From a virus (Duplodnaviria > Caudoviricetes): DNA of 60,518 nucleotides. The notes beneath the pieces were generated by a model. The model did no database searches. It was not told where the DNA came from and worked only from the letters and a program-made list of their open reading frames with translations. Shown in pieces: positions 5,689-38,739 of the stretch. The translations under genes and the position numbers were made by a program. Each line of letters starts with the position of its first letter. Position 1 is the first letter of the stretch. The stretch is from IMG/VR virus record IMGVR_UViG_3300042539_002213, positions 1 to 60,518 of that record; one strand, written 5' to 3'.

Positions 5689-5707
5689 CGTGCGATCCTC
5701 TTTATAA

Positions 5708-5890: not shown

Positions 5891-5894
5891 GGCT

Positions 5895-6650: not shown

Positions 6651-6655
6651 TTTTC

Positions 6656-7255: not shown

Positions 7256-7505
7256 TATTTATTCCACTAGTTGCTGGGACATAGGTCAAAGTCAAATAAT
7301 AAACACCAGCTGAAACCGACACACATCCTGGAACAGCTATTACGCTTTTACTCGAATCTACCCAAGAATTTACCTTATCAATTAAATCCTGTACAGTTTC
7401 CGCTTGAAAAACTTGCACAGAAACTAACTGATCGGGTAGCAAAAAATGGCGAAGGCTTGCTATAGGGAATTGTTGATCTGAAGGCAAAGAAAAACTATCT
7501 GCCAT
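7248..7505 (-). CDS. Hypothetical protein
   Basis: 85-aa ORF with GGAG RBS. Confidence 0.65.
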   Translation of the reverse strand: MADSFSLPSDQQFPIASLRHFLLPDQLVSVQVFQAETVQDLIDKVNSWVDSSKSVIAVPGCVSVSAGVYYLTLTYVPATSGINNA

Positions 7506-17721: not shown

Positions 17722-17735
17722 AGCAACTCCACAGA

Positions 17736-17764
17736 AGTGTAGCCGGTATTACACCGGCTACACT
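17736..17764. promoter_or_regulatory. Perfect 12-bp hairpin just upstream of the recA RBS
   Basis: AGTGTAGCCGGT-ATTAC-ACCGGCTACACT; no U-tract directly downstream on either strand. Confidence 0.5.
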
Positions 17765-17793
17765 GTAAAAAGAAGGGTTAATTAAAAGGTTAA

Positions 17794-19593
17794 TTATTGT
17801 TTGGGCTTAGAAGAACGTGCTTTAGCCCTAGAAATAGCTTTTGCGGTTGAAAGACTTTTCTCGACTTGGTCTTCAAATGTATCAGAGGTGTTATTTTCTT
17901 CAACCGGATCAAAATCAGCAGATACTTCATCCGAATCATCAAAACCATCATCCGATGCTTCAAACTGATCTTCAGTATCACCTTGCTCTAGTTCGATTTC
18001 GTCTCCAAATTCGTCATCAAAACTATCTACTAGTTCATCTGCCTTACTTGCAGGTGCCGATTTAATTTTTTCGGCTTTATTTTTAGCAGGCGATGTGTCT
18101 TCAGCAGAAAACTGGTCGTCAAACGAATCAAAACTTTCAATGTCATCTGGCACGGAATCTACTTCTGGTAATTTTTGTGCCGAAGCTTTTGACGTATTCT
18201 TTTTGACAACTGGTTCTGGTTGAAAAGCTTCTTCCTCTTCGGCTGGATCATTAATATCATCAGCAGCGTCAGGAATTGTTACTTGAGTTCGATTACGCAG
18301 CACAGCTTTTACCGAATCAAATTCCAAGTATTCAGGATTACTCATCCAGCATAGTTCTACAAGCTGCGGTACAAACCTAAAAGCTTTAGCAATCCACAAG
18401 CAACGTTCTTCGATAGATGGCTCGTAAAGCAAGAAAGAATCAGCTGGATCTGATTGGCCTTCCCGCCAGAAGAACAAATGCTTTGAAGTAATATTCTCAA
18501 CTTGCTCTGTAGTCAACGAAGGCCTGAGTTCGCCATTAGGGCCAGGAATCATCGTGGACAAGCTAACTTCATACTCAGTGATTTCCTTAGCGCTTTGACC
18601 TGATACATAAGTGCTATATGCGGAAAGCTGTCGGTTAAAGACATTGTAAGGGTCTTTTTCGCCCTTCTTTGTATCTTGCTTAGGCAAGAATTTATCTGGA
18701 TTAAAAAGGTGTACAAACACACCGGCTTTAACTGTCCTAGTCTGATGGCTGTAAATGCCGCATGGATCCCCGTATTTATACATCAACGAAGGATTCAAAT
18801 CTAAATTACCCTCAACGGCAGTTTCCTTCGGCTTACAAAACATTTGAAGTATTTTTCGACCAGTTGAGACACTAATTGGTGTAACTACCAGTGGGTCATC
18901 GGCGCGGTCACCTAGCGGCACTCCATCGCGGGCAATTTCTTTGTCTACAGACTTATTGCCGGACTCATAATGAATGTGTTCACGAACAAGGTCTAAGTCT
19001 GGACCATTATTGTAGACAGAGCCGATAATAAAATACTGCTGCTTCCACTTTGAAATAGCAGGCGTTTTACCTGCAAGCAAACAATTCCAATCAGAATCCC
19101 ATTTACGATTCTGTGCAAACCTGCCGCTTTTAGCTGCATCCTTGGCAACCTTACTAAATTTAATGTAAGGCTCCTCCCAAAACGAAATGCCATCTGCTAC
19201 AGACTCTTTATCTCTGGCAATGATATACGACACAGGGTTACAGTCCTTAGCGTCGTAATTGATGTTTTGCGCCGGAGTATTGTTTGGATGAATACCCGCA
19301 TAGGAACAAATGTAAACAGGTTCAGAGATAGAGACACCGCCAAGACCTGCTACATCGTTTGTATCCAATCTACCGTTTAGCAGTTTGGTTGGATCTTCTG
19401 GATCTAGCATATTCCAGATTCGAACAGAATAAGTACCGCCTTTACGGTAGCAATCTGGATTCAGTAGCCTAATGTTTTTGGCATTCGGATTAATAAAGTG
19501 ATTGTTCTTTGGTAGCAAATTTCCGCTGTCAGAATCCTTCGGCAACAAATTTCGCTTAACGGTTGACTTACTTCGTGGCTTTAGCCTGCTCAT
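17794..19593 (-). CDS. Hypothetical replication protein, possible ssDNA-binding protein
   Basis: 599 aa with a long D/E-rich C-terminal tail; lies between the polymerase/dTMP kinase and recA. Function inferred only. Confidence 0.45.
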   Translation of the reverse strand: MSRLKPRSKSTVKRNLLPKDSDSGNLLPKNNHFINPNAKNIRLLNPDCYRKGGTYSVRIWNMLDPEDPTKLLNGRLDTNDVAGLGGVSISEPVYICSYAGIHPNNTPAQNINYDAKDCNPVSYIIARDKESVADGISFWEEPYIKFSKVAKDAAKSGRFAQNRKWDSDWNCLLAGKTPAISKWKQQYFIIGSVYNNGPDLDLVREHIHYESGNKSVDKEIARDGVPLGDRADDPLVVTPISVSTGRKILQMFCKPKETAVEGNLDLNPSLMYKYGDPCGIYSHQTRTVKAGVFVHLFNPDKFLPKQDTKKGEKDPYNVFNRQLSAYSTYVSGQSAKEITEYEVSLSTMIPGPNGELRPSLTTEQVENITSKHLFFWREGQSDPADSFLLYEPSIEERCLWIAKAFRFVPQLVELCWMSNPEYLEFDSVKAVLRNRTQVTIPDAADDINDPAEEEEAFQPEPVVKKNTSKASAQKLPEVDSVPDDIESFDSFDDQFSAEDTSPAKNKAEKIKSAPASKADELVDSFDDEFGDEIELEQGDTEDQFEASDDGFDDSDEVSADFDPVEENNTSDTFEDQVEKSLSTAKAISRAKARSSKPKQ

Positions 19594-20276: not shown

Positions 20277-23200
20277 TTACTTTTTCCAGCCTTTCTTTTG
20301 CTTGGTGTTAGGATTAAACGCAGGCGGTGGTTCAATTTTACGTGCAACCGTTCGGTTTTTTACGTCCGATACTGACCGTAGGTCTTTTGGACCCGAAGGT
20401 TTACTGTAATGGAAAACACAACCGTCAACAATACCCGTACCCGTAGGCAACTTGTACTGCTTTGCTTCCGCGTCGGATAGCTTCTCACCCCAGTGAAGCA
20501 TAACTTCACCCTCAATACCTAGGTAGTAAGGGCCGACACCCGTAGGCTCTCCCTCAAACTGACCGTCTAAATGCGTCGGATATATAGGTACTGATTTTCG
20601 CATGTACGTAGGTAAAACGTACGTGCAAACGTGCTTTACGTACTTATAGGGTACTTCCAGCAAAATAGCGTCGTGTACCTGAAGCAGTAGCCTGAACATA
20701 TCGTGTCCTTTGACTCTTTGTTTTTTCCGGTAGTCCATTAAGTAACCAAGCGCCCGGCTTACAACCGAAGCAATCATAGACTGAATCGGAAAATTCATAG
20801 CCTGCCGTTCAAACTCAGCTCGTATTTCAGGGTTAGATGAACTGTCTGGAAATCGCCTAAATCGTCCAAAGCAATTAGCAAGATAGCGGGGTACTTCTTT
20901 AAACTCATTGCCTTCAAAAACTACTCCGCTTCCACGCTGCTTACAAGTTTCAAAGAAAGGCTTAAGTCTTGGATAAGTCTGGAAAATAGCGTTAATTACA
21001 GCCTGTGCTTCATCAACTGTAATATCAATACCTTCTTCTTTAGCTGCAATTGCAATAGCCCGGGCTCCGCGACCATAGGCTATACCGAAAATAACAGACT
21101 TAGCTACGATACGCAGGTGTTTTTTACCTGCATTTTCAAGTCCGCTTTTAGTCGGAGCGCAATTTAACTTAAAAGCACGAACTGCCACATTGCTATGGAT
21201 ATCGTAAAAATTAGGATCGTCTTCAGGTAGCTGATTTCGTGTAGCATGGTCAATCATAACCGAATCACCAGCCATAACTGCCATTCCAAAAAGCTCAGCG
21301 CCTACATAATCTGCCTCAATTAAAACGTGACCAGGCGATGCTTTAAGCACACTTCTAAGGCTGTACTTATATTTTGAGCCCAGCAATCGTTTGTAATCAG
21401 GATCCCGCCTTTTACTGATATTCTGCAGGTTAGGTCTAGCACTAGACCACCGACCTGTTTCCTTAGTTTGATATATGTGCGTTCGGATTTTACCGTCGTC
21501 GCAGCAAGCAGAAGCTAATCCTTTATCGTACTCTAGGTTTCCATCATCGTCGTAGATAGGGTCTTCTGTTTTTTCATCTACGCAGGGTGGTCTGAGAACG
21601 TTCTTTAACGCCTGGTCCAAAAACCTAAAATCGCGAAACAGCCCTACAATTTCGGCTTTCTTTTTGTCAGTAACCGTTTGAGCCAGGATCGACAAAACTT
21701 GTTTGTTAGTACAAGGACTATGCAAACTTTCGGCTTTGCTCTGTTTTATCTCGTCCCAAGGTTTTGGCGGTTTACTGGTGTCAAAAATAGGAGTTAAACT
21801 AAGGCTAATTGCGTCTGCCGGTCTAATTCTTACGTGCTCACCTGTTTCAGGGTCCCGCTTTCCATTTAGCTGGTGCCCGAACAAAGCTTCTTTAGTTTGA
21901 ATCAAAGACCGAATATTAAAATCAGGCCAATTTAATCTTTTCCTAATATCGGCTTCTAATTCTGTTCTTGCCTCCATGAACCTAGCTGTCAGAAAATCTA
22001 TTCGACCCCTGTCTAGCTTTATACCGTTTTGATGTATATCTAAAACTGCAGGCGTAGCTATTTGAGATTCCCAGAATGCTTCCCTACAGCAGTTACCATC
22101 GTAGTCGCTATCCAGCAAAGGGCTTAGCTTGTGGTATAACCGCAAAGTAACGTCTGCATCGTACATACCGTACGGCAACAGAATATTATCCGGACACTCG
22201 CCGTAACCCTCTAATTCCGCATCAGATAATCCATTTTGTTTGCAGTAATTAGTTTTCCACTCTTGAAGTTCTTTATCGTACCTTGGGCAGTTTAAATACC
22301 TTGCTGCAAGAAGCTCTAATTTGTAATTAGCTGTTTCCTCAATCGCATGGCACATCAAACCAGTATCCGCACCCCCTTCATATTTTGTACGATACCAAGC
22401 GGGAACAGTATCTTCAGGAGTAAAACCGTCAGCAAAGTATGTCTTAAATAATGCGAGCGATCCTTTAGGTGCCTCATCTAAGGAAGTCAGCTGTAAGTCG
22501 TAAAGCTTACACGAAAAGCAGTCTTGTAGATTTAATCCTGCAGCTTCTAGCCACTCTAAGTCAGCATTAAAGAAATGCCCTACTACTCTTTTTCGCTTAA
22601 AATTAAACTCAACATCAGATCCATCATGCCGTTTAGTTTCAAGCTTACCGCCTTTAAAGAAGGTATTGATCGCAGCTAAAACAGATTCGTTTGTTAGAGC
22701 TAACTCCTCGTTAACTGCACCTCCGGCGTGATGTAATATAACACCTATAGCGTGCTTGGGTTTCCACGCTATTTGAATAGTACGCATGTAAGATCCTTTA
22801 TTTACAGGATGCTTACCGTGCCACTCGGCGTCGACTGCAATTACGGATTCAAGCGGATCGTAGTCGCTGTCTATTTCCCCTAGCCAGTACAGCAAATCAT
22901 CAAAAGTAGAAACAACCGTGTGCTTTATATCGGAGTCAAAACCTACGTCTTGGCCTCGGGCTAGATTAACAAAAGCAGCAACACCTGCCTCAAGTGAGCG
23001 TATAGACGATTGATCCCTCAACGTTTGTCTCGGGTGTACCACCGTCATCACAGAAGCTTCTTTCCAGGAATTTTCAACCTGAGCTTCATTTAAAGCGTAG
23101 TTGTATTTGTATTTTACAACCTTGCCCATCATATCATTTACACTATGACCATCTCCAAGCAAAGCTTTGCTTGCATCTGTACCTAGGCAAAGTATGTAAT

Positions 23201-23798
23201 CAGGCCGAACAATCTTTATTTCGTGTTGAAGTAAATAAGCTCCGTCTTTAACCCACTGTGCTCTGAAATTGGTCTTAAAGTTCGGAGGCATAAACTTCAC
23301 CACGTTGGTGACGTATATCTGACTAATCTTAGGCATTTTAAACTGAGTCAGCAGCTCTAAAAGCAATTTGCCATCAGCATCAATAAGACAACGTTTATTC
23401 TTTAATTCAGTCTGCCAAGGGTTTTTACCTATAATCATGACCTTTGCTGGTCGTGGCCCTGTGCCAGACTCGCCACCCCATATATGTCCCGGTAAAAACG
23501 CGGCGTCCTTTGTCTGGTAAGCGGCTATTTCTACAGGTAAAACAAATTCACTGGATCTAAGTGCATCTTTGACCAGGGAGTGCAAAAAGTCCAAATCATT
23601 GCTGCGACCTACAGCTTCCGCGTGAGCCGTAAAAGCACTACCGGCATAAAGCGTTGGCATGTGCGGAGCATCTAAAGGAAATATGTCATTGCCGGTTCTA
23701 ATTGCCTGCTCTTTAGACAAGGCAAGTTGCTGTGCTTTTATATTCTTAACGCCACCTGCAACGACATTGGCCCCTAATTTCTGTATTTTCCTAGCCAT
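20277..23798 (-). CDS. polA: Family A DNA polymerase with N-terminal uracil-DNA-glycosylase-like domain and 3'-5' exonuclease
   Basis: UDG-like (KVMIIGKNP, TNVVK, VRPDYILCLG, HP); Exo VDAE and YGMYDAD; TGRWSS, PNLQNI; motif A ADYVGAE, B RIVAKSVIFGIAYG, C QVHDA. Confidence 0.92.
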   Translation of the reverse strand: MARKIQKLGANVVAGGVKNIKAQQLALSKEQAIRTGNDIFPLDAPHMPTLYAGSAFTAHAEAVGRSNDLDFLHSLVKDALRSSEFVLPVEIAAYQTKDAAFLPGHIWGGESGTGPRPAKVMIIGKNPWQTELKNKRCLIDADGKLLLELLTQFKMPKISQIYVTNVVKFMPPNFKTNFRAQWVKDGAYLLQHEIKIVRPDYILCLGTDASKALLGDGHSVNDMMGKVVKYKYNYALNEAQVENSWKEASVMTVVHPRQTLRDQSSIRSLEAGVAAFVNLARGQDVGFDSDIKHTVVSTFDDLLYWLGEIDSDYDPLESVIAVDAEWHGKHPVNKGSYMRTIQIAWKPKHAIGVILHHAGGAVNEELALTNESVLAAINTFFKGGKLETKRHDGSDVEFNFKRKRVVGHFFNADLEWLEAAGLNLQDCFSCKLYDLQLTSLDEAPKGSLALFKTYFADGFTPEDTVPAWYRTKYEGGADTGLMCHAIEETANYKLELLAARYLNCPRYDKELQEWKTNYCKQNGLSDAELEGYGECPDNILLPYGMYDADVTLRLYHKLSPLLDSDYDGNCCREAFWESQIATPAVLDIHQNGIKLDRGRIDFLTARFMEARTELEADIRKRLNWPDFNIRSLIQTKEALFGHQLNGKRDPETGEHVRIRPADAISLSLTPIFDTSKPPKPWDEIKQSKAESLHSPCTNKQVLSILAQTVTDKKKAEIVGLFRDFRFLDQALKNVLRPPCVDEKTEDPIYDDDGNLEYDKGLASACCDDGKIRTHIYQTKETGRWSSARPNLQNISKRRDPDYKRLLGSKYKYSLRSVLKASPGHVLIEADYVGAELFGMAVMAGDSVMIDHATRNQLPEDDPNFYDIHSNVAVRAFKLNCAPTKSGLENAGKKHLRIVAKSVIFGIAYGRGARAIAIAAKEEGIDITVDEAQAVINAIFQTYPRLKPFFETCKQRGSGVVFEGNEFKEVPRYLANCFGRFRRFPDSSSNPEIRAEFERQAMNFPIQSMIASVVSRALGYLMDYRKKQRVKGHDMFRLLLQVHDAILLEVPYKYVKHVCTYVLPTYMRKSVPIYPTHLDGQFEGEPTGVGPYYLGIEGEVMLHWGEKLSDAEAKQYKLPTGTGIVDGCVFHYSKPSGPKDLRSVSDVKNRTVARKIEPPPAFNPNTKQKKGWKK

Positions 23799-24888
23799 CT
23801 TTTTTACCCCAGTCAGTAATTACGTCTTTTTTCTTCGCTTCTTCAGTTATGTAGTCCTTTAAAAATTGAACGTCGGTAAATATAGCCGGATCCGTACCAG
23901 TTGGAAGCCACACACTGCAACAACCTCCAGCAAGTAAACCGTCTAACTCGGCCTCTGCTTCAAATACGCTTTTAAGCTTCTTCTCGTTTTCAGCCTTTTC
24001 CTTTACGTCCGGATCAAACAAAAGTACGCATGAGTGAAAATTCTTTGCAATCATTGCAATCTGTGCGCTAGAAAGAGAAGACCCTAGTACCGCACCAAAG
24101 TGGTTCCCGCCACGCCAAACGCTGGTTACACCTTCTACAATAACGGCCATATTACACTTAAGCATGTTACCGAAGTTGTAAATTATGTTCCGCTTAGGTG
24201 TACCAGGTGCCGTGAAATACTTAGGTATGTTTGAAAGCTTCCAGTTTGTCTCGTATGCTGCACGAGCTTGCCAGCCTACCATCTTTTTGTTGCGGTAAAT
24301 TGGAACTATTAGCTTTTCATTGCACAGTACTTTAGTGCTTTTAGTGCACCAGTGTACATTGTAAAACTTACCTAAATGCTCAGGCTCAAAATGCCTGCTT
24401 TTTAAGTAAACTACTGCAGGATGGTTTTCAGGTAAATTGTCTACTCGAACTACATCCCCAGGCCAATTCATACGAACAGAGTCTACGTCAACTTCTTTGC
24501 CTTCTTTGACACTTACCTTGGTTAAATCATAAAGCTTATGTCCTGTAAGCATTTGTTCTAACTTCTCGTAAACTTCTGTCTGCTTTAAAGCCAAAGGACA
24601 ACCGGCGTTAAAACAAACTACTAGACGAGTTTGTTTTTTACCAAATTCGTCTAGTGTTCCATAGCGATGACTTATCAAACACCTAAATCTTGTATCATTA
24701 CAAAATGGACAACAGACAGCGTAATGCTCACCCCAGTTATCTATCTTTACTACGTCTCTACCGGTGATTATGTCTCTTGTTTTCTTCCTTAGTTGTTTTT
24801 GACCTGTATTTCCTATCCTAACATTTTTAAACGTGTTTTTTATTCGGTTAAAAAGTATCAAATTCAAAACATTTTTTGTCGTGTTCAT
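23791..24888 (-). CDS. DNA primase (Zn finger + TOPRIM)
   Basis: CPFC...CFN Zn finger, GWQAR, KYF, IVEG and FDPD motifs. Confidence 0.85.
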   Translation of the reverse strand: MNTTKNVLNLILFNRIKNTFKNVRIGNTGQKQLRKKTRDIITGRDVVKIDNWGEHYAVCCPFCNDTRFRCLISHRYGTLDEFGKKQTRLVVCFNAGCPLALKQTEVYEKLEQMLTGHKLYDLTKVSVKEGKEVDVDSVRMNWPGDVVRVDNLPENHPAVVYLKSRHFEPEHLGKFYNVHWCTKSTKVLCNEKLIVPIYRNKKMVGWQARAAYETNWKLSNIPKYFTAPGTPKRNIIYNFGNMLKCNMAVIVEGVTSVWRGGNHFGAVLGSSLSSAQIAMIAKNFHSCVLLFDPDVKEKAENEKKLKSVFEAEAELDGLLAGGCCSVWLPTGTDPAIFTDVQFLKDYITEEAKKKDVITDWGKKDG

Positions 24889-24902: not shown

Positions 24903-26582
24903 TTAGTCGGCATAAGTAGTTTCAGGTAAAGCAGCTCCTTCGTCGTCAATTACATCTTCGTCTTCATTTGGATCAAACATAAAATCACTTGCATGCAGTA
25001 AAGCCGAATTAGCCGCAGGCATGCCCATGTTGTTATCCCCGGTTAAACTCTTGTGTACTATCTTACCGGTTCTATCGATTTTATAGTCGTTCAAGACAGA
25101 AACAGTATTAAACATACCGTCAACCTGTATAAGCACCGGTGGGCTACTTCCTGCCCTGCGATGTTTTGTACAGGCGATTTGTCCTTTTCCATCTGGTGTC
25201 AAACAGCCACCTGCCATGCAGAAGGCTAAATTCTCACCAAACATTTTTGCTCCCTTTGCGTCCGTATGCCGTACAATCTTAGCTGGGTTGCTTATAGCAT
25301 TAGCTTCACCATTTAACTGATGCAAAGCCCAAAGTGGACAATTAAAACGCTTAGCTACCTCAAACGTTAAGTCCTTACCTGCTTGCTGATAGGTAAAGTT
25401 TGTACGCTCCTTTTGCTTTGGAGGTATAGTTGCATCCTTATCAACCATTAGACCAACGTAGTCTACAATAATTACATCTACAAAGTACTCGGGGCCTCGC
25501 CTTTTAAGCTCAGCGTTTATTCCACTAACAATAGCCGAGACACCCTCAGTACTTGCTTTGGCATTTTCTTGTACTGCACCTGAATAATCCAAACAAAACG
25601 CATGCTCATTTAAAATCGGTATAAGCTTTTGAATCCTAGTTCTCTCTGGCTCAAAAATACCTGCGTCTATTTTGTCTTTAAACAAAATCTTCTCGTAATC
25701 CAAAGGGTGATTAGGATCATTACTTAGAGCATTTAATCCGTCAAAACCCATGTTTTCAAGACGGTCACGCCGTACCTGTGCTGAATACATAAGTAGCCGG
25801 TGCTGTAACTCAGGAGCTAAAGACGCTTCATAAGAAACAAATACCGATAAACCTTTACGCTTGTTATTTTTAGTTAACGCATCGGTATAACAACGCGTAG
25901 CTGCAAGCGACCAAAGCATAACGCCTAATGTAGTCTTGTAAGCACCCATAGGTGCCATGATGCCGTAAGCCTCACCTTTTTGTGTACCGCCGCCAAGAAA
26001 AGTATCTAGAAAACCAATTCCACTGGTTGTTTTATATGCTAGCTCTGTTTTATCCCAACTATTCGGTAAAGTCAAAGTGGCTGCTCCGGAAAAAGATAAC
26101 GACTGTAGAGATTCAATCTGCGATTGAGCTTCTTTAAAAATTGAAAGCATGTCCGTTACACCGGACGTTTTCAAAGTTGCAATCGTAGACTTTTGAAGCT
26201 TACCTATAAGAATTTTCTGTGCGACTTTTTGCGCAAAAACTTCTAGTTTAGGTGTATTTACACCTGAGGATCCAAACAACAAAGGATCAAAGGCATACTC
26301 CAAGAATTCCTCTAGAATCGATATGTCATCGTCATCTAAAGGAGCATCGCCAGTCTCAACGTACGTGGCGATTTCAGCTGTGATTTCAGCAAAGCTGGGT
26401 AGGTTTTTGTTTTCATTGTAATAGTCCAAGACTACACGGAAAACAAGCTGATAACCTACAAAATCAAAATGTTCAACTGTCAGCTTCGATTTAAGGCCGC
26501 TAAAAATAGATTCATTCTGAATCAAAATTGCAAAAAACAACCTTAAATGAGCTTCTGACAGTTCACCTGCCTGTTTGCTCAT
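24903..26582 (-). CDS. Replicative DnaB-like helicase
   Basis: LDTFLGGG, Walker A APMGAYKTT, VSYE, IIVDYV, HQLN and KHR; adjacent to the primase. Confidence 0.85.
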   Translation of the reverse strand: MSKQAGELSEAHLRLFFAILIQNESIFSGLKSKLTVEHFDFVGYQLVFRVVLDYYNENKNLPSFAEITAEIATYVETGDAPLDDDDISILEEFLEYAFDPLLFGSSGVNTPKLEVFAQKVAQKILIGKLQKSTIATLKTSGVTDMLSIFKEAQSQIESLQSLSFSGAATLTLPNSWDKTELAYKTTSGIGFLDTFLGGGTQKGEAYGIMAPMGAYKTTLGVMLWSLAATRCYTDALTKNNKRKGLSVFVSYEASLAPELQHRLLMYSAQVRRDRLENMGFDGLNALSNDPNHPLDYEKILFKDKIDAGIFEPERTRIQKLIPILNEHAFCLDYSGAVQENAKASTEGVSAIVSGINAELKRRGPEYFVDVIIVDYVGLMVDKDATIPPKQKERTNFTYQQAGKDLTFEVAKRFNCPLWALHQLNGEANAISNPAKIVRHTDAKGAKMFGENLAFCMAGGCLTPDGKGQIACTKHRRAGSSPPVLIQVDGMFNTVSVLNDYKIDRTGKIVHKSLTGDNNMGMPAANSALLHASDFMFDPNEDEDVIDDEGAALPETTYAD

Positions 26583-26594
26583 GACGATTTTTCC

Positions 26595-27392
26595 TTACGT
26601 GTCCATAGCTTTTTGAACTATAGACGAAGCCAATTCTTTTAATCTGCTAGGCATTGTTTTTCCGTACAAGTAATCGTACGCGTCCGGAAAAACGGTGTAG
26701 TCCAAAGCTGCCAAGAATTCTATCTGCTCTACGTATTCTTTTAACTTGGAGTAGATAGAACTCTGGTTCACAATAGCTTTGTTCAACTGTGCCTGGCTTA
26801 ATGCATCCGACACTAAACAATATCTGAATAGCGGAGATAGCTCAAGCCTTGCATCCAACACTGTGGAGTATACGATGGTAAGTAGATCCTGAACAGTGGT
26901 TCCTTTATTTACGGAATTAAAAACAATAGCCGATTTGGCTCTGTTTGACTCCGAAATAAAAGCTGCCTGCAATTTATTTACCTTAAATTTCATAAACTCA
27001 TTTACTAAATCCAAGTAACGCTCGCTAGCTAGCTGCAAAACTGTAGGAGTATCTAAAGCGCTCCTACGCAAAAGAAAAAAAAGAATACGCAAATGCTGTA
27101 TAGGCGATTGCGGTTTAGCTAGCTGCAGTAGTTTTTTATATGCCTCGACCCACTGATTAGGTTTTTCTTTTTCCTCAGGTGTGTTGTAACGCTTACCACC
27201 TTCAAGGCTTTTAGCAGGGTAATATACCGTCGCGCCAGAGCCTAACCTAATAGAATCAAGCGTACGCCTTTCCATTACGTATGTTTTTTTAAACAAGTCT
27301 AGACTTTTGTCACTGCCGCTAATTTGCCTTGGCTCAACTACACGTTGTGGCTTAGCTTTAGCTGAAGGCCTAGGTTGCTTTGAGAATGTCAT
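26595..27392 (-). CDS. Hypothetical protein
   Basis: 265-aa ORF with an ATGA overlap with the SF2 helicase stop. Confidence 0.7.
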   Translation of the reverse strand: MTFSKQPRPSAKAKPQRVVEPRQISGSDKSLDLFKKTYVMERRTLDSIRLGSGATVYYPAKSLEGGKRYNTPEEKEKPNQWVEAYKKLLQLAKPQSPIQHLRILFFLLRRSALDTPTVLQLASERYLDLVNEFMKFKVNKLQAAFISESNRAKSAIVFNSVNKGTTVQDLLTIVYSTVLDARLELSPLFRYCLVSDALSQAQLNKAIVNQSSIYSKLKEYVEQIEFLAALDYTVFPDAYDYLYGKTMPSRLKELASSIVQKAMDT

Positions 27393-28879
27393 AAATATTC
27401 CTTTTCAATTGCTTCAGATGGAAAGTGCTGCTTCCATCCGTGCGAATTATACACCTTTGCTCTTTGCTTTGCTTGTCGGTTAAAGCCTAAGTCAAAATTA
27501 TCAAGGTAATCGTGAATAATGCCATGCGTTTTGTCTTCAGCTATACGGCTAACACGACCAGGTATCTGTGTGTCATTAATTGCACTACCGCCACCGCCAC
27601 CACGAACAAGTACAGTCAATTTGTTAAAAGAAACACCGACATTCCATACTGTGGTAGCAATGACCTTTTTCAAAATACCTTTCTCAAATTGAGACGTTAG
27701 CAGTTTTTTGCGCTCAGCCGTCATTACCTGTTCGTCTTTGCCGCAAAATCCTTTTGCCTTGTATTTAGCTAGTTCGGAAGGCTGCAAACCTTCATCGGCA
27801 TAAACCAGCGTAAATTCAGGTAAAAGCTTTTTTAAGTGGAAAGCATGAATCATAGTATCGACCGTAATTAGAACCTGGGTATCGCTGCTGTAGGATTGTG
27901 CGTCTTCTGCGATAAGCATATTACGGTAATCGTTACACCAGATGCCAATTCGTTTACGTTCTACAGTGTCGTCAACACCTGCGCATGGCTTGTAATCCAT
28001 TTTGACTTCACGCCATTTAATGTGAATCGGCACAACGAGTCCAGCACCTTGTGCAGATTGGTAAGGTACTCGGTAAATAATAGGTCCGAATATTCCTTCA
28101 AGCCGTTTATCCTTGTTGTCAAATCGAGCGTCGTGACTTGCAGATAAACCGTAGTTTCGACTGCTTTGCCAGCGTACAAGCTCTGCCGCTGCGTTGTCTG
28201 CTGCTAGTTCGTGGCACTCATCGCCTATTAGAATATCGCAATCGGCTGGGCTGTGCTTTAAAGATCCGGCAGTGTAGCACATAACCCTGCGGTTTTTAAT
28301 AGTTTTACCGCCACCTACAATACCTACATCACCTACCATAGACACAAGCTCAGGGTAAATGCGATCCCTAAGAACAGCAACTCGTCTTGAAACTACGTCT
28401 ATTTTAGCTTTTGGAAAAACAGAAGCTACGATTCCGATCATAAATGATTTACCGAAACCGGGTGCGCAGTCTATGCGTCCACAACTATGTTTGATAACTG
28501 CGTTTAAAAATTCAGGTTGGTATTCTCTAAGCTGATAATCCTTTATGTTTTGCATACGAAGCTCAAACTTTTTTGGGTCTGCGGGCGACATGTTTTTGCA
28601 TTTAACAATGTAACCTGATTGTTTAAGTTTTTTGCTTATAGAGGCCCAAAATCCATAAGGAGTAGCCAGTCTACCTTTGTGATCAAGTCTAAACAGCTCG
28701 TGCTTATCGATAACAAATGGCCTCTGTCCTTGTTTTTTAGCCCAGTAAAGCTCCTGGCCCACTAGATTTCGGTACGAAGTAAAAGTTAAAAGTGGAGTCA
28801 GAAGATTCTTCACTTTTGGGTCTTCAGAATCCACCAGCAGAATGTTTCCGGTTTTTATTAAAAGTATTTCTTTAGCCAT
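27389..28879 (-). CDS. Superfamily 2 helicase (UvsW/SSL2-like)
   Basis: LREYQ, APGFGKS, DECH, GLSAS, ATTVWNVGV and QIPGRVSR motifs. Confidence 0.9.
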   Translation of the reverse strand: MAKEILLIKTGNILLVDSEDPKVKNLLTPLLTFTSYRNLVGQELYWAKKQGQRPFVIDKHELFRLDHKGRLATPYGFWASISKKLKQSGYIVKCKNMSPADPKKFELRMQNIKDYQLREYQPEFLNAVIKHSCGRIDCAPGFGKSFMIGIVASVFPKAKIDVVSRRVAVLRDRIYPELVSMVGDVGIVGGGKTIKNRRVMCYTAGSLKHSPADCDILIGDECHELAADNAAAELVRWQSSRNYGLSASHDARFDNKDKRLEGIFGPIIYRVPYQSAQGAGLVVPIHIKWREVKMDYKPCAGVDDTVERKRIGIWCNDYRNMLIAEDAQSYSSDTQVLITVDTMIHAFHLKKLLPEFTLVYADEGLQPSELAKYKAKGFCGKDEQVMTAERKKLLTSQFEKGILKKVIATTVWNVGVSFNKLTVLVRGGGGGSAINDTQIPGRVSRIAEDKTHGIIHDYLDNFDLGFNRQAKQRAKVYNSHGWKQHFPSEAIEKEYL

Positions 28880-28923
28880 AATAGACCTGTTGTCTTCGCT
28901 AGAAAATGCAATAGAATGCTATA

Positions 28924-28984
28924 AGCTGCTTGACGACAGCTAAGCCAATTACCACTTGAGGGTCACAACTCAAGTGGTTTTTTT
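28924..28984 (+). ncRNA. Putative ~60-nt small RNA (hairpin plus intrinsic terminator)
   Basis: TTGTCT(28890)-16 nt-TAGAAT(28912) promoter-like element; hairpin AGCTG/CAGCT; 10-bp stem ACCACTTGAG/CTCAAGTGGT followed by a T-run on the + strand. Confidence 0.4.
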
Positions 28985-29462
28985 ATGTCTGGTTGCAGAC
29001 AAATTTCCGTGGAAATAAATCTACAACCTCGTAATGCCCGTAATCACCAGGCTTCCATGGTGATAAACCTTTGTAGCGACCTGCAGTTGACATTAAATCA
29101 GAAAAAACATTGTCGTCTAGGTCTAAAGGTAAAACACAGTTAATGCCTATTGTTTGACCTGGCATAATCGCTTCGTGCATAGAATACCTTTCTCGACCGG
29201 TACTGTTTCGATAATAAACTCGTTGCCAGCGCTTTTCAGTTAATTTAGCGTCAATTTCAATGTCCCAGCTAATACCTCTAACTAGTTCAGGTCGAATAGA
29301 AAGTAAAGTTGCAGCCATTAGCATATTTGATTTATGCCAGGCTGGAAGGAAAATAATACAACCCAAAGAGCTTCGCATAAACAAAAACCTACCTGTGGTT
29401 TTTTCTTTAGCGTTGCCCAAACTAGGCTGGGTAAATCGTATTCTAACTGTGTAATCCTTCAT
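28983..29462 (-). CDS. Stand-alone RAMP/Cas7-like protein
   Basis: Likely start MKDYTVRIRFTQPSLG; N-terminal beta-strand PxLG, HEAIMPG before a beta-strand, C-terminal G-loop AGRYKGLSPWKPGDYGHYEV. Confidence 0.65.
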   Translation of the reverse strand: MKDYTVRIRFTQPSLGNAKEKTTGRFLFMRSSLGCIIFLPAWHKSNMLMAATLLSIRPELVRGISWDIEIDAKLTEKRWQRVYYRNSTGRERYSMHEAIMPGQTIGINCVLPLDLDDNVFSDLMSTAGRYKGLSPWKPGDYGHYEVVDLFPRKFVCNQT

Positions 29463-30252
29463 AGCAATTAATGTAGTGCTCTTTAGCTTTCTTTGTTTTA
29501 AAAAACATGTCTGGCTCAAACTCAAAACATTTTGTATCGTTTGCAAGCCAATGCCTAAACACAAAATGCAACATCAAGTAACACGCAGTTAAATCTTCGT
29601 TGCGACTGTTTCTTTTGATTGCTTCTTTGTGTAAAAAACTATCTGCAGGTAATTGCTCAAAAATGTGTAACAGTAAATCAAACCTGTGCACTACTTGAGC
29701 CAACGACGCGTTCTTAAAGCCAAAAAACCGGTCAAGCCCCACTATCTTTCCGTCTGCGGATTGAAACCACTTTGGATTTATAATTTCGGAAATAAATGAA
29801 CATACCGCAACTTCATTCTTAATTCCTAAAAAATAAAAGGCTTTCCGGGCATGATGTACCTGCGCCAAAGTGCTTGCAAGTTCAATTTCATTTTCTCGAA
29901 ATGCCTTTGCTACTGTAAGGCTTAACCCTAGATCAGGATTAAGTTTGTGCCAGTGCGGAGACTGCCTTTTATATACAGGCATTGAAACTAGATTGTAAAG
30001 AAAAAACTCAGATTCCAAAAAAGACTTGTTCCATAAAAACGGAGAACCTACATATACGTTTAAATCTTGGTTTGAGCTTTTTTTAAAATGCAAATCAGTG
30101 ATTAAACCGTAGTTAGATGCAGACCCTACAACAAATACGTCACCTGAAACCAAGTCGGATAACCTTTGCTTTTGTGCTTTATTTCCTGCGCGTAGACCCC
30201 AAATTTGGCCTTTAGGGTCTACGTGTAAGCAAATGCTATTGTTTGTTGTCAT
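29443..30252 (-). CDS. Divergent IS110-transposase/Nop-domain-like protein
   Basis: FLGIKNEVAVCSFISEIINPKWF...LDRFFGF resembles IS110 Transposase_20 IPGIG..A..LLAEIGD..RF....L..YAGL; no DEDD tetrad is evident. Confidence 0.45.
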   Translation of the reverse strand: MTTNNSICLHVDPKGQIWGLRAGNKAQKQRLSDLVSGDVFVVGSASNYGLITDLHFKKSSNQDLNVYVGSPFLWNKSFLESEFFLYNLVSMPVYKRQSPHWHKLNPDLGLSLTVAKAFRENEIELASTLAQVHHARKAFYFLGIKNEVAVCSFISEIINPKWFQSADGKIVGLDRFFGFKNASLAQVVHRFDLLLHIFEQLPADSFLHKEAIKRNSRNEDLTACYLMLHFVFRHWLANDTKCFEFEPDMFFKTKKAKEHYINCYEGLHS

Positions 30253-32414
30253 TTTGAAATCTGTACTATGTGGTCAAAAGCATTGGTCAAACCTTTTTCG
30301 TGGGTAATGACTACAATTTGCTTGTTTTTTCCCATGCTGCTTGACCACTCCTGTAGTGCGTCATGGAAATAAGCAACGTTGTCTTCATCTAGTCCATCTG
30401 CCGGTTCATCAAGAAACATTATACCAATGTTATGTCCAAAAAGCCTATCTAACGCAGACCTAAAAGCAATCGCGAGAATAACCTTTTGTCCGCCGCTAAG
30501 CTGCCGGGCTGAAACACTGTGCTTATCTGAGAAAAATACATCAAACGATAGGTCTTCGGTAGCCTTCACTAAAAAAGGATTATTAAATCTACTTAGTTCT
30601 TCGTTAATGTGCGATTCTAGCCTTTTTAAGTTGTTGTGAGCTACACGTTTAGGTAAGCATGTCCAGTGAAAAATTTCCGATGCTCGGCTAATAATTGACA
30701 TAAGATGCTTAGCTTTAGCGTCTTTTGCCAAGTTTGCTTTTAAACTAGAAAGAGTAGCTTTCAACCCATTTAAAGTGTTTTGATGTGATTTCAGCATACG
30801 TTCAAGCATTTCAATCTTTGTTTTAGACGACTTATGCTTTTCAATTTGCTGTTGATATTCGTCACACTGCTCGTTAGAGCAAACCTTACCTAGCCCATTA
30901 AGTTCTTCCTGCAATTCTGTGAATCTACTTTGACGCGACTGAACGTTTCCAGTATGTATACCAACAGCACTTACGGCATGATTGTACGGATACTCAGTCT
31001 CGCCAAGTAACTTATCTGCCTTAACCTTACTAGCTAAAATAGATTTGGCCTTATCTAGCGATTCCTGTGAAACAGTCTTACCTTCAACCGTAGACTCAAG
31101 TGCCTTTAACTTAGCTTCTATGTTGCTCAGTCTAACTTCAGCCTGAACTACATCGGTATTAGCATACTCTAGTTTTTTAACTGAAGCGCGGCTAGATAAA
31201 ACAAGTGTTTTTAGCTCAGTATAACCTTCAACCTTAGAATTATACTGTGAAATCAACTCCTTAATATGACTAGGTTCTACTTTTTGCTTACAGTGATCAC
31301 ACTCAGCCTTCTTACCTTCCTTTAGGTTTTTAATTACAACTTCTAACTCAGATAAACTAGCTTGAAGCTGTCTAAATTCAGCTTCTTTTTCTTCTAACTC
31401 AGATCCCTGCAACAAACCATTATCACAAGCTTCTTTAGTTAAATTCTCAAGTTTAGTTTTAAAACTGTTTAGATCAGTTTCAGCATCTTCTTTTGCCTTT
31501 TTGTGTGCAATAATAGACGCAAAAGTTTTAGCTAGCGTATCGGTTGAAGCGACAAGCGATCTTGCTGATTGAATGTTTTCGCTGTTACGCGAAAGCCAAT
31601 CTTTAGCTTTTTGTCTCCTGGCTTCAATGTCAGCTGCATTTCCTTTGGCTGTATCTAGTTCAGCCAAGTAGGAAACAAGCTCTTTTTTAAGTGTAGCTAG
31701 TTGCAATTTAAGGTACGAATACCGCTGAAAATCACCTACTGCTTTTTCAAGCTGTACTAATTTTTCTGCCGAAAGAACTTCGACCTTAGCTGCAGCGATA
31801 TCTTCTTCAGTAGACTTAATCTGCGTTGCAATTGAGTCAATTTGAGCTTCTATGTCTAAACTGTTGTCAACCGTCGTTTTAAGCTTGTAATAATCAAGCA
31901 TGGTTGAACAAGCTGAAGAAATATTAGCTGAAAAATCAACACCGCAAAGGTGCTGGAAGGTCTTTGCTCTTACACTAGCTGACTCATCCAGGAATGTAAA
32001 CATTGCCCCTTGGTTAACAAAAACGTACTGATCTACTACGTTTCGAGTTAAACCTAAGCTGCCAAGTACTGTTTCATTAACAGCAGTCGCTGATTCTGCA
32101 ATCGTGTCGCCTAGCTTAAAAAAGTTTTCGTTAGGTCTAAGACTACGTTTTAGCTCAAACAGCTTACCGTCGTGGGTACCGGTAATTCGGACAAAACTAG
32201 GTTCGTGTTTCTTGCTTGTGTTAGTAATAACACCCGCTTTAGTACCAGCGTTAAATCGACCAAAGTCACCTGTGATTCCTGCGTAAATTGCATTCACAAG
32301 CGTGCTTTTACCTGCACCATTGGATCCGATAATTCCGGTAACACCCGCCTCAAATGAAACTTTAAGTTCTCTGTGCGGTCCAATATTTTTAAGTTCAACA
32401 GTATCAATCTGCAT
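30249..32414 (-). CDS. sbcC: SbcC/Rad50-like ATPase (gp46-like)
   Basis: GSNGAGKST, coiled coil with CDHC hook, LSGGQ, FLDEP and ITH motifs. Confidence 0.92.
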   Translation of the reverse strand: MQIDTVELKNIGPHRELKVSFEAGVTGIIGSNGAGKSTLVNAIYAGITGDFGRFNAGTKAGVITNTSKKHEPSFVRITGTHDGKLFELKRSLRPNENFFKLGDTIAESATAVNETVLGSLGLTRNVVDQYVFVNQGAMFTFLDESASVRAKTFQHLCGVDFSANISSACSTMLDYYKLKTTVDNSLDIEAQIDSIATQIKSTEEDIAAAKVEVLSAEKLVQLEKAVGDFQRYSYLKLQLATLKKELVSYLAELDTAKGNAADIEARRQKAKDWLSRNSENIQSARSLVASTDTLAKTFASIIAHKKAKEDAETDLNSFKTKLENLTKEACDNGLLQGSELEEKEAEFRQLQASLSELEVVIKNLKEGKKAECDHCKQKVEPSHIKELISQYNSKVEGYTELKTLVLSSRASVKKLEYANTDVVQAEVRLSNIEAKLKALESTVEGKTVSQESLDKAKSILASKVKADKLLGETEYPYNHAVSAVGIHTGNVQSRQSRFTELQEELNGLGKVCSNEQCDEYQQQIEKHKSSKTKIEMLERMLKSHQNTLNGLKATLSSLKANLAKDAKAKHLMSIISRASEIFHWTCLPKRVAHNNLKRLESHINEELSRFNNPFLVKATEDLSFDVFFSDKHSVSARQLSGGQKVILAIAFRSALDRLFGHNIGIMFLDEPADGLDEDNVAYFHDALQEWSSSMGKNKQIVVITHEKGLTNAFDHIVQISK

Positions 32415-33561
32415 TTAATTTTTCCTCCAACCAAGTAGCTAGTATAATCGACGGATCGCCGCCAGAAAGTAATCGGCTAGCAAGTTCGTAAGCAGCTGGT
32501 TCTTTAATCTTGTCTACCTCATCATCTAGACACTCCATAAGCGTAAGCTTAGCTGTGTCAGCGGTTTTATCGTCAGCTAAGTTTGTAACCGCTAAACCTT
32601 CAAGCTTAAAAAACAAATGAGCGTCGTTTGAGTATTTCTCTTTAATCCTGTTTACAAGCTCGTTATCTTCCGGCTTGTGTACAATTTTGATTAAAGGTTT
32701 TTTAAGCTCTTCAGCTAAAAAAATAGGTTGAGCTAAAACCTTAGCGATAGCTTTTTCTAATTTAAGCGGTGTTAAAGTAGAAGGATGCTTAGTATTAAAA
32801 TCGTAGTAACTGCGCGTAGGTATAGGAATGCTTGTAATTTTTAGCTTTCGCAAACCCGCTGCGCTTGCATCTGACTCAGCTACAAAGAAATACTTGTTCG
32901 GTGGCTCACTGAGGCTACGCATATGCGTACTACCTGGACTTAGGACGGTAAGTTTGTTTTCACCGTGGTATTTGCAAATGTGATCATGATAATCACCGGT
33001 CAACAAATATCTTACATTTGCTGGCACATCGTCAAAACAACCTTGTGGGTTACCTAGGTCACCCATAAAGTCTTTCCAGACCTGGTGACATACTAGCAAA
33101 AACTCACCTGGTGATTTTGCGACAAACTCTAACTTTTCAGCCAGTGTCTTTGCGTTGCAATAGTCAAAGCCTGCAATTTGAAGGCCATTTGAAAATTTAC
33201 AGTCAAATACAGGAGCTTCTAGATTCAGGTGAAAAACATTCCCGTTTACATTTCCTAACTGAGCCCAATGAGTTTCTAGTTGAAACTCATGCTGACCTTG
33301 GTTGTAAAGTACGGTAATGTTATTGTTAGTCAGTGCAGCAATTCCTTTTGCCAAGTTATAAACAGGACCGGCTAAGTTTAGTTGCTTATCCAGTAAGTCG
33401 CCCGCTAAAATAACAGCGTCTACCTTGTTAGATAGCGCGTACTCTACAATGTAGTTCCAGCTTGCATAACTGTCACCGTATATCGGTCTGTGCTTCCAGA
33501 TTGTGTCCGAAAGATGCAGATCGCTTGTAAACAAAACTTTGTTAAAAACGTAATTAAACAT
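32404..33561 (-). CDS. sbcD: SbcD/Mre11-like metallophosphoesterase nuclease (gp47-like)
   Basis: SDLHL, AGDLLD, GQHE, CHQ, GDYH and SPGS motifs. Confidence 0.9.
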   Translation of the reverse strand: MFNYVFNKVLFTSDLHLSDTIWKHRPIYGDSYASWNYIVEYALSNKVDAVILAGDLLDKQLNLAGPVYNLAKGIAALTNNNITVLYNQGQHEFQLETHWAQLGNVNGNVFHLNLEAPVFDCKFSNGLQIAGFDYCNAKTLAEKLEFVAKSPGEFLLVCHQVWKDFMGDLGNPQGCFDDVPANVRYLLTGDYHDHICKYHGENKLTVLSPGSTHMRSLSEPPNKYFFVAESDASAAGLRKLKITSIPIPTRSYYDFNTKHPSTLTPLKLEKAIAKVLAQPIFLAEELKKPLIKIVHKPEDNELVNRIKEKYSNDAHLFFKLEGLAVTNLADDKTADTAKLTLMECLDDEVDKIKEPAAYELASRLLSGGDPSIILATWLEEKLNAD

Positions 33562-37206: not shown

Positions 37207-37446
37207 TATACACTTATGTATCTTTATTTACTTCTACAAAGTAAATAAAGTCATTGTAAAACCAAAATTCCGTGGATTAGTATTTTTAATATTAATTATA
37301 CTTGAATCAGAACTGTTGATTTGTAATGAGTAAAGACGGCAGACCTTTAATTTTGATTTAGATTTAGTCTAGTTTCTTATAACACTTTTTATTGTATTTT
37401 AGCTTTATTTACTTCGTAGAAGTAAATAAAGATACATAAGTGTATA
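37207..37446. repeat. 44-bp inverted repeat pair, each arm internally palindromic, flanking an AT-rich 152-bp core
   Basis: 37207-37250 TATACACTTATGTATCTTTATTTACTTCTACAAAGTAAATAAAG is the reverse complement of 37403-37446 with one mismatch. Confidence 0.92.
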
Positions 37447-37449
37447 GGT

Positions 37450-38197: not shown

Positions 38198-38476
38198 TTA
38201 GTAGAATTTAGATTTTTTTGTGACGGTATCGTACCCCTTGCCGCTGCCACCAGTCCAGCCGTAATAACCGTTTCCCCAGCCAACATCGTTGTCGTCTGTA
38301 TTATCGGTACCACGGCTGCATCCGTCAGAAGTATCTAGACTGCTTCCATGTCCGTTGCCGATACTATCACCGCAGAGCCAACCATCACCACCTCCGTCGA
38401 TACCACACCCGTAGGGTTTTCCGTCGCCGTTGCCGCGACTATCACCTACCGGCATAAAAAGTTTAGTTTTGCTCAT
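38198..38476 (-). CDS. Gly-rich (GxG repeat) small protein
   Basis: FMPVG leader, GxG repeats, DTVTKK tail. Confidence 0.65.
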   Translation of the reverse strand: MSKTKLFMPVGDSRGNGDGKPYGCGIDGGGDGWLCGDSIGNGHGSSLDTSDGCSRGTDNTDDNDVGWGNGYYGWTGGSGKGYDTVTKKSKFY

Positions 38477-38739
38477 TTGTATTTAGCCTTTTTTTTATTT
38501 ATGACTGCTGTAACAGTTTTTAACCCTGAGCTTTCTACATCGGTATTGTCTAGTACGTAGCCTTGACCGTCGTTATCGTAACCACTCCCGTAGCCATTTC
38601 CACAGCCACTGCCGTTATCGTAACCGCAGTGAAATCCACATCCTTTACCACTGCCATCGTCGTAGATATAGCCGTAACCTGTGCCTGCGCCGTGCCCGTA
38701 TCCGTTGCCTACCGGCATAAAGCGTTTAATTGTAGTCAT
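38473..38739 (-). CDS. Gly-rich (GxG repeat) small protein
   Basis: FMPVG leader, GYG/GNG repeats, KTVT and basic tail. Confidence 0.65.
   Translation of the reverse strand: MTTIKRFMPVGNGYGHGAGTGYGYIYDDGSGKGCGFHCGYDNGSGCGNGYGSGYDNDGQGYVLDNTDVESSGLKTVTAVINKKKAKYK

Follow-up and report, generated by a model that had tools for sequence, protein, structure and literature searches.

The virus record IMGVR_UViG_3300042539_002213 of IMG/VR was analyzed over its full length of 60,518 bp (hereafter the window), with attention to two minus-strand genes, termed A and B, and to the noncoding gap that follows them. Gene A (29443-30252, 269 amino acids) adjoins the sbcC gene (30249-32414, minus strand), and gene B (28983-29462, minus strand, 159 amino acids) lies between A and a gap of 103 bp (28880-28982) that separates it from a gene for an XPB-like superfamily 2 (SF2) DNA helicase (27389-28879, minus strand). 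A first-pass annotation of the window had described A and B as overlapping genes (30252-29443 and 29462-28983) embedded in a replication operon and had proposed that a Cas7/RAMP-like protein, an IS110/Nop-like protein and a small RNA form an RNA-guided module at this site. Both the overlap and the setting were confirmed: A and B share 20 nucleotides, and the genes follow one another in the order SbcD-SbcC-A-B-SF2 helicase-DnaB-primase. The ATG start of B was placed at 29462 because the N-terminal pattern M-[KR]-[DE]-[LY]-[TS]-V-x-I-[RK]-F is common to 43 aligned homologues. In relatives, A and B either overlap by a few bases or are no more than about 90 nucleotides apart. This closeness of A and B points to coupled expression.

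The structure of B was modeled with AlphaFold2 from an alignment of 43 homologues, with a predicted local distance difference test (pLDDT) score of 94.4 and a predicted template modeling (pTM) score of 0.86; 50 homologues were found in metagenomes. A Foldseek search of the PDB with this model returned 125 matches at E ≤ 0.001 (best E 1.7e-6, template modeling [TM] scores by query of 0.58-0.71), and the rows listed at the top were type VII Cas7 subunits and Csm/Cmr complexes (types III and VII). In VIA, a structure search independent of Foldseek that covered 48,161 chains, the first 46 rows were all RAMP proteins (Z scores 11.8-6.0), ahead of an initial non-RAMP entry at a Z score of 5.9. These RAMP rows comprised Csm/Cmr subunits, the Cas7 domains of gRAMP/Cas7-11, type IV and type I Cas7, Cas5 and Cas6. 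The ESM Atlas's own model of B matched a bacterial cluster consisting to 98% of PF03787 RAMPs, with a TM score of 0.73 over 157 residues, and the best match in BFVD was a phage protein named 'Cas system-associated RAMP superfamily protein' (E 1.5e-8). The Cas7/RAMP fold proposed for B by the first-pass annotation was thus recovered in agreement by AlphaFold2, Foldseek, VIA, the ESM Atlas and BFVD. As modeled, B is an unusually small RAMP protein, nearest to the type III/type VII Cas7 branch (Csm3/Cmr4), and the RRM-based RAMP fold extends over the whole predicted protein.

Conservation within the B family is concentrated in a set of polar residues. Among the 43 homologues, N46, H96, E97, K131, S134 and R152 are invariant, and N17, K19, R30, H43, D67, D71 and R92 are nearly so. 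The C-terminal part carries the glycine-rich motif YKGLSPxxPGxxG; a glycine-rich C-terminal loop is typical of RAMPs. The RAMP model PF03787 matched none of the 43 members at E ≤ 10, a weak match to the BSD domain was obtained in 5 of them, and the window protein had no match in PADLOC, PHROGs or Pfam and none among PDB sequence profiles. Neither a CRISPR array nor genes for Cas5, a large subunit or Cas6 lie alongside B in the window.

A search of 1.84 billion proteins with a three-sequence profile at E ≤ 0.001 gave 383 representatives of the A family. In a sample of these matches, 25 relevant members had no Pfam domain, and the 26th was an unrelated SprB-repeat protein. The AlphaFold2 model of A, built from an alignment of 80 members (pLDDT 93.9, pTM 0.90), is predicted to consist of an RNase H/RuvC-like domain with the order beta-beta-beta-alpha-beta-alpha (residues ~1-105), followed by a Nop/IS110-type helical domain (residues ~106-264, with the helical part continuing to ~268). 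All six top Foldseek matches were IS110 recombinases (ISCro4 and IS621) or TIGR-TasR, with weak E values of 0.011-0.031 but probabilities of 0.90-0.99. In VIA, the best match by far was TasR (9mty_B, Z 12.3), in which 229 of the 269 residues were aligned across model residues 5-264. Four TasH entries matched the Nop domain (residues 106-264) with Z scores of 8.8-9.1, and ISCro4 and IS621 matched over the whole length at 7.5-7.8, so that the eight best entries were all TasR, TasH or IS110. The next unrelated entries, at 5.8-6.5, were generic RuvC/RNase H folds matching the N-terminal domain alone, and archaeal Nop5 (3nvm_A) scored 5.4. The IS110/Nop fold that had been suggested for A was upheld in AlphaFold2, Foldseek and VIA, and the model supports the RuvC-plus-Nop architecture of TasR and IS110, with the closest likeness to TIGR-TasR. 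A Nop-type RNA-binding domain such as that of TasR is therefore predicted in A at the level of the fold only.

The RuvC-like domain of A has, as judged from its alignment, lost the conserved acidic residues of this fold. Across the 80 homologues, no acidic column is conserved, the RuvC acidic tetrad included: D12 is shared by 52 of 80, D in the column of residue 108 by 42 of 80 (L in the window protein), and no other column is acidic in more than 50% of sequences. By these column counts, A retains the RuvC fold and carries neither the catalytic acidic residues of active TasR nor the DEDD residues of IS110. Their absence does not exclude kinship with TasR, because TasR proteins with a dead RuvC domain are known. 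The strongest conservation instead falls in the Nop-type domain, at I157, [DN]159, P160, [RK]161, W162, R169, G178, W235, F245, F250 and F251. None of the 80 members matched PF01798 (Nop), PF02371 or PF01548 (the Transposase_20/DEDD_Tnp_IS110 models) at E ≤ 10, and PF02371 had no match in the window versus matches in 6 of 14 control genomes. No match to A was found in Pfam, PHROGs, PADLOC or PDB sequence profiles, the best being DUF3846 at E 0.17, and a feature search of the ESM Atlas with A gave scores of 0.85-0.86, which is chance level. Neither A nor B had a DNA or protein match among the phage records of INPHARED.

To follow the locus in relatives, 23 IMG/VR contigs were collected through B together with three species-genome hits, all of them contigs of metagenome-assembled genomes and one truncated at the contig end; three further contigs were added through A and five through the helicase, and some contigs were near-identical to one another. 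Of the 33 contigs in which the B locus is complete, 32 had an A-family gene immediately upstream of B, and the same 32 retained the order SbcD-SbcC-A-B-helicase-unknown-DnaB-primase, even at protein identities of 20-45%. Co-conservation of the two genes, which the first-pass annotation had made a test of its proposal, was thus observed. At loci retrieved through the helicase at an identity of at least 34%, the order SbcC-A-B-helicase-DnaB was found in 28 of 28, and none of A, B, SbcC or DnaB accompanied the four remote helicase matches (21-27% identity). Identity to the window protein across the clade was 41-68% for B, 41-71% for the helicase, 24-54% for SbcC, 25-51% for DnaB and 22-35% for A, so that B is conserved to a degree similar to the helicase and better than SbcC at most loci. 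A was present as a single copy in five of five large relatives, always between SbcC and B. Since the gene order is kept in 32 of 33 contigs even at 20-45% identity, A and B are a core gene pair of the replication operon and not a mobile or accessory island, and their linkage to SbcCD and the SF2 helicase is strict and ancient. The possibility that A is the remnant of a mobile element was considered and rejected on its single copy at a fixed syntenic site; the several or variable copies and the element ends expected of IS110 were not found.

The intergenic region between sbcD and sbcC differs among these loci. Many relatives carry an additional gene there, which is absent from the window, where sbcD and sbcC overlap. 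This gene occupies 2386-3153 in locus L002 and 4196-4882 in locus L008 and encodes 228-255 amino acids in these two loci; similar gaps of ~650-1200 bp between sbcD and sbcC were seen in L006, L015-L020 and L023-L025.

The gap behind B had been described as some 100 bp long, with a promoter-like element and two hairpins. Its length of 103 bp and both hairpins were recovered (fold z -3.2); its only promoter-like site, however, is a plus-strand element directed away from the operon. This sigma-70-type site (28890-28917) combines a -35 box TTGTCT (28890-28895) with a -10 box TAGAAT (28912-28917) across a spacer of 16 nucleotides, and matches the consensus at 9 of 12 positions. By itself it did not exceed chance: 11 such sites were counted at 27-34 kb versus 13.0 ± 3.4 in shuffles. 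The promoter was found at the same position in 11 of 11 close loci, with a -35 box beginning in TTG (TTGCAT in six), a spacer of 16-17 nucleotides and a -10 box reading TAnAAT in ten and TACATT in one. In the AT-rich close relatives, the scores of single loci were not significant against shuffles (P 0.08-0.88; 21 loci scored), and the case for the promoter is therefore one of positional conservation.

Downstream of this promoter lies a candidate small RNA of ~63 nucleotides on the plus strand (predicted ends 28924-28986), with a fold z of -4.38 and none of 200 shuffles equally stable. It begins with a 5' hairpin (28924-28941), the sequence of which varies between loci, continues through a single-stranded linker (28942-28951) and ends in a terminator hairpin, termed hairpin 1 (28952-28977), and a U run (28979-28985). 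Hairpin 1, a strand-neutral element with a 9-bp stem and an 8-nucleotide loop, directly follows the stop codon of B. Compensatory changes were detected in 10 of its 11 base pairs across 11 loci; 93.4% of cells were paired, compared with 21-42% when the partners were slid, and the covariation score was reached by none of 500 shuffles. In the window and most relatives, the U run beyond hairpin 1 is on the strand opposite to the operon, and none was found on the operon strand. The linker is CCGCUACAC-like in most close loci and reads AGCCAAUUA in the window and in L003.

A covariance model, R1, was built from the 11 close loci. It gave a single strong match in the window and in each of two complete relatives (175 and 194 kb), with no second strong copy, and it recovered the element at the same place and strand in two loci outside the training set, L077 (E 5.6e-13) and L062 (E 2.8e-10). 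Of the distant (group II) loci, just one, L018, gave a weak match (E 0.024). The distant loci nonetheless keep the layout of the element: promoter scores of 9-10 out of 12 were obtained in 9 of 12, the loop of the 5' hairpin carries a conserved CACACC in several, the linker is CACCGC-like, and a strong terminator precedes a U run. Alignment of the group II RNAs with MAFFT yielded no consensus structure, and the layout that they share is that of single-sequence folds. No Rfam family reached its gathering score in the window, and nothing credible was found at relaxed E values in the gap or in four relatives. The small RNA proposed by the first-pass annotation was therefore found as a conserved candidate gene; it lies on the opposite strand, and its anatomy is that of one promoter-to-terminator unit, not of a guide array.

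Hairpins were also noted in two other noncoding regions of the window. The gap after the UvsX-like recombinase gene (17715-17800) contains a perfect 12-bp hairpin (AGTGTAGCCGGT / ACCGGCTACACT), the stem of which (GTGTAGC) resembles the GTGTAGCGG motif beside hairpin 1 of relatives. An intergenic region of 236 nucleotides (37214-37449) is flanked by near-identical hairpins of 12-16 bp (37219-37250 and 37400-37434), which could pair with each other over long range.

Arrays were sought with Tandem Repeats Finder, a direct-repeat scan and a clustered 9-mer scan in the window and in the nearly complete relatives G001 and G003 (175 and 194 kb). No CRISPR or TIGR array and no tandem or interspaced noncoding repeats were found in any of the three, the search not extending to guide units inside coding sequence; the repeats that were detected appear to be coding, with periods in multiples of 3. 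The tandem units of a TIGR array, with two 8-12-nucleotide spacers and box C/D anchors, were likewise not found, within the same limit on coding sequence. The statement of the first-pass annotation that the window holds no cas1, cas2, cas3 or cas6 gene, CRISPR array or insertion sequence ends agrees with these results, none of them having been seen, and the extension of the array search beyond the window, which it had called for, gave none in the two relatives.

Among the repeats, runs of a 12-nucleotide unit (CGTAGCCGTTGC-like) with periods in multiples of 3 were found at 60441-60518 and 38227-38705 of the window and recurred in G001 at 71525-71939, 104225-104402 and 108791-108992; they probably belong to minus-strand coding sequence. 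In G003, the record behind L015, a 135-nucleotide tandem repeat with 4.2 copies and 81% matches was found at 157424-157981.

The single best reading of these observations, to which we assign slightly less than an even chance, is that A and B form an RNA-binding, non-cutting complex that acts in or on the replication module. The two would be nucleic-acid-binding proteins, coupled in translation and lacking an array, that owe their likeness to the scaffolds of two RNA-guided systems to descent or to convergence and have become a fixed core part of the replication-recombination operon in a clade of freshwater jumbo phages. A would bind B, and the ligand of the pair, left uncut, would be a structured RNA or an RNA-DNA hybrid; foremost among the candidates for that RNA is the single opposite-strand small RNA directly after B, which either A or B may hold. 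Such a particle could act on or near the replication genes, either by joining SbcCD and the helicase in the handling of R-loop or primer intermediates or by repressing transcription, as known nuclease-dead TasR proteins do. A bolder form of the proposal, which we regard as improbable, holds that A, B and the small RNA make up a fixed-guide ribonucleoprotein (RNP) joining a Cas7-type backbone to a nuclease-dead TasR/Nop subunit and serving the phage's own replication rather than defense. For example, the small RNA might be held on its own template or on a conserved site as a stable R-loop, an RNA-defined origin at which the SF2 helicase, DnaB and primase would be loaded; alternatively, the RNP might gate SbcCD at replication intermediates. 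The interpretation offered by the first-pass annotation is partly supported, namely in both fold calls, the co-conservation of the genes and the lack of an array; the domesticated RNP that it proposed is hypothetical, and might act in recombination-dependent replication, in transcription control or in competition with other phages.

Several observations weigh against an RNA-binding A-B complex. The predicted kinship of A and B to RNA-guided proteins is one of fold only, because neither family matches any sequence profile. In one relative, the 51.7-kb fragment L008 (positions 4849-7492), B directly follows SbcC, and the A profile finds no A-family gene anywhere in the fragment; despite the missing A, this locus retains the gap RNA element. 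The hairpin loops of the small RNA, at 8 nucleotides, are too small for TIGR-type spacer pairs, and there is one unit and no array. Complementary 10- to 12-mers for targets of the small RNA in trans were not above those of shuffled RNAs in three genomes, and a lone 14-nucleotide complementary match in G003 was not significant. Because terminator-type hairpins also occur in other intergenic gaps of the window, the RNA unit could be ordinary operon punctuation that marks a boundary, or it could control the helicase block as a cis-antisense RNA, in either case without relation to A and B. Nor does adjacency single out A and B over the helicase as partners of the RNA, since the whole module is collinear. 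A complex prediction for A and B gave ipSAE values of 0.01 and 0.00 against a mark of 0.32, and weighs neither way on their binding.

The most substantial rival, which we consider somewhat unlikely, dispenses with an RNA partner and takes A and B as protein-only accessories of DNA repair or replication, with the gap RNA as unrelated punctuation or a cis-antisense regulator. A would then bind branched DNA through its dead RuvC-like and helix-hairpin-helix-like domains, B would bind single strands or be a small nuclease, and both would aid SbcCD and the SF2 helicase in end processing. The position of the pair, which 32 of 33 contigs keep fixed between SbcCD and the helicase, and its strict co-occurrence with the helicase clade at 28 of 28 loci fit this reading, as do the many invariant polar residues of B, which are often seen in enzymes, the terminator-type hairpins elsewhere in the window and the failure to find a guide array in the window and two relatives. 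There is also an analogy in archaea, where NurA-HerA sit beside Mre11-Rad50; NurA, however, was absent from the 50 matches listed for A in VIA. The closest structural relatives of A and B are all RNA-binding subunits of RNA-guided complexes, which argues for an RNA partner, and we know of no DNA-only function for RAMP or Nop-type domains. If the fold matches themselves were artefacts, with B a generic RRM and A an RNase H domain joined to a helical bundle, their likeness to RNA-guided proteins would be a functionally meaningless coincidence of common folds. The identities of 4-16% to the matched structures, the lack of a sequence-profile link and the weak Foldseek E values of A (0.011-0.055) are what such a coincidence would give. 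It is nonetheless very unlikely, as both models are of high confidence and come from deep alignments, B is matched by 46 consecutive RAMP rows before the first non-RAMP entry at Z 5.9, with a second predictor (ESM Atlas) in agreement, and the two-domain match of A covers 229 of 269 residues with TasR, TasH or IS110 as its eight best entries.

Other rivals keep the RNA-guided kinship and change the task. A might be a dead TasR in a highly diverged true TIGR-Tas-type system with one fixed stem-loop guide, either the gap RNA or a guide hidden in coding sequence; it would bind at a fixed DNA site to repress phage or host transcription or to control its timing, with B as an added RNA-stabilizing subunit. 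TasR is the top structural match to A (Z 12.3), a conserved structured RNA adjoins the pair, and TasR repressors with a dead RuvC domain and stem-loop guides, as well as guides beside or inside tas genes, are described in the main text of bioRxiv 10.64898/2026.09.09.750476. We nevertheless judge such a system to be a minor possibility, since tandem units were not found and 8-nucleotide loops cannot hold two 8-12-nucleotide spacers (architecture as given in the main text of PMC12045711), the single-stranded motifs of the RNA, instead of varying, are kept from phage to phage, complementary sites are not in excess, and the A family has no match to PF01798, PF02371 or PF01548 at E ≤ 10. Least likely of all is that the pair is an antidefense decoy, in which a Cas7 mimic and its helper poison or titrate class 1 CRISPR complexes or CRISPR RNAs of the host. 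A stand-alone Cas7-like protein in a phage whose window has no other cas genes would suit such a role. Counterdefense genes are usually variable and peripheral, whereas this pair is fixed in the replication operon across 20-45% identity and B is conserved like the helicase; the core position and high conservation make a decoy unlikely. The closest RAMP relatives are, moreover, only 8-14% identical to B, a poor basis for mimicking one host complex. An RNA-binding, non-cutting complex of A and B thus remains our preferred reading.

Two separate RNA-guided families hold their RNA with RAMP/Cas7 proteins and with Nop/TasR/IS110 proteins, respectively. In the literature searched, no report was found in which the two are encoded jointly, or in which one of them belongs to the fixed core of a replication operon in a virus. 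Should A and B hold the neighboring small RNA, they would represent an array-less RNP that does housekeeping work for a virus, which would bear on the origin and reuse of guide-RNA scaffolds and could make very small programmable binders (159 + 269 amino acids) possible. If they bind DNA only, the pair would show both scaffolds at work in the absence of RNA. With hundreds of members, a conserved candidate partner RNA and clear neighbors, the A-B family is a tractable test case. The finding is built from known kinds of parts, and their pairing may be a new use of RNA-guided machinery.

The surroundings of the pair were annotated from Pfam and PHROG matches. The record has an estimated completeness of 28%, so that the window is a fragment and the full genome would measure roughly 200 kb; contigs of relatives reach 157-235 kb, with terminal repeats on one. 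In a survey of public runs, 20 DNA runs of lake or freshwater metagenomes contained part of the window, and no RNA run was among those listed. Nearly all genes of the window are on the minus strand. SbcD (32404-33561, minus strand), with Pfam and PHROG matches, forms the directly upstream context of A together with SbcC, which matched AAA_23, SMC_N and SbcC_Walker_B in Pfam as well as phrog_77. The SF2 helicase matched phrog_16 and, in the PDB, an XPBII-like protein (E 3e-10). It is followed on the minus strand by an unknown gene of 265 amino acids (26595-27392), a DnaB-like helicase (24903-26582) and a primase (23791-24888), the last two from Pfam and PHROG matches, and by a family A DNA polymerase (20277-23798) of 1173 amino acids in one reading frame, with an N-terminal domain of the uracil-DNA-glycosylase superfamily and a 3'-5' exonuclease domain. 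A thymidylate kinase comes after the polymerase, and a UvsX-like recombinase and an endonuclease VII lie farther along from the replication block.

Three further genes of the window were recorded. A large terminase subunit (GpA_ATPase) on the plus strand (44123-47350) contains an intein with a LAGLIDADG homing-endonuclease domain (Pfam Intein_splicing and LAGLIDADG_3). A second primase-like protein of 789 amino acids with a CHC2 zinc finger (47328-49697, minus strand) and a small SMC/AAA_15-type ATPase of 197 amino acids (11366-11959, minus strand) lie outside the main replication block.

Of the known systems, TIGR-TasR is the nearest to A. According to the main text of PMC12045711, TIGR arrays consist of units of two 8-12-nucleotide spacers with box C/D motifs, in dual-repeat or stem-loop form; some tas clades use stem-loop units, a clade of the candidate phyla radiation has an inactive RuvC domain, and the Tas family is defined by the profiles PF01798 (Nop), PF02371 and PF01548. 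The main text of bioRxiv 10.64898/2026.09.09.750476 describes nuclease-dead TasR and TasA as RNA-guided transcriptional repressors, nuclease-dead TasR as binding DNA through RNA, and arrays at 6,685 of 20,096 tas loci. A shares with TasR the domain order, an N-terminal RuvC-like domain followed by a Nop-type domain (top match Z 12.3), a similar size (269 amino acids versus about 290-330) and occurrence in phages, and it lacks the RuvC catalytic residues as dead TasR proteins do. It differs in having no detectable sequence-profile similarity and no dual-repeat or stem-loop TIGR array, and in being always paired with the RAMP protein B and fixed in a replication operon, whereas TasR is found in a stand-alone locus. 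In the main texts of both sources, 'RAMP' and 'Cas7' occur 0 times, and jumbo phages and helicases are also unmentioned; a literature search returned no paper joining 'Nop domain' with RAMP or Cas7-like terms.

The single structured noncoding RNA beside the A gene recalls the IS110 bridge-RNA recombinases (IS621 and ISCro4), which match A over its whole length (Z 7.5-7.8) and likewise combine a RuvC-like with an RNA-binding domain. In contrast to these, A has no conserved DEDD residues or insertion sequence ends and occupies the same syntenic position, once only, in each genome examined, and the RNA adjacent to A and B is made of two plain hairpins on the opposite strand, with no large internal guide loops. 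B, for its part, resembles the Cas7 proteins of types III and VII (Csm3, Cmr4 and the Cas7 of Cas14 complexes) in the RAMP fold predicted for its whole length (Z 9-11.8, TM 0.58-0.71). It differs from them in size (159 versus about 200-300 amino acids), in the absence of a PF03787 match, and in being a single-copy gene of a replication operon without Cas5, Cas10, Cas11, an array or other cas genes. Closest to it in the latter respect are the HRAMP and ARAMP systems of Haloarchaea and Asgard archaea, which the passages of PMC8730458 devoted to them present as array-less, diverged Cas5-Cas7 derivatives with a predicted role in defense. Like B, these are diverged RAMPs without arrays, somewhat closer to type III, and they are encoded with nucleases or other enzymes. 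As presented in those passages, however, HRAMP is archaeal and includes a Cas5 homologue and no Nop/IS110-type protein, whereas the A-B pair is viral, belongs to the core of a replication operon and sets its RAMP protein beside a TasR-like partner.

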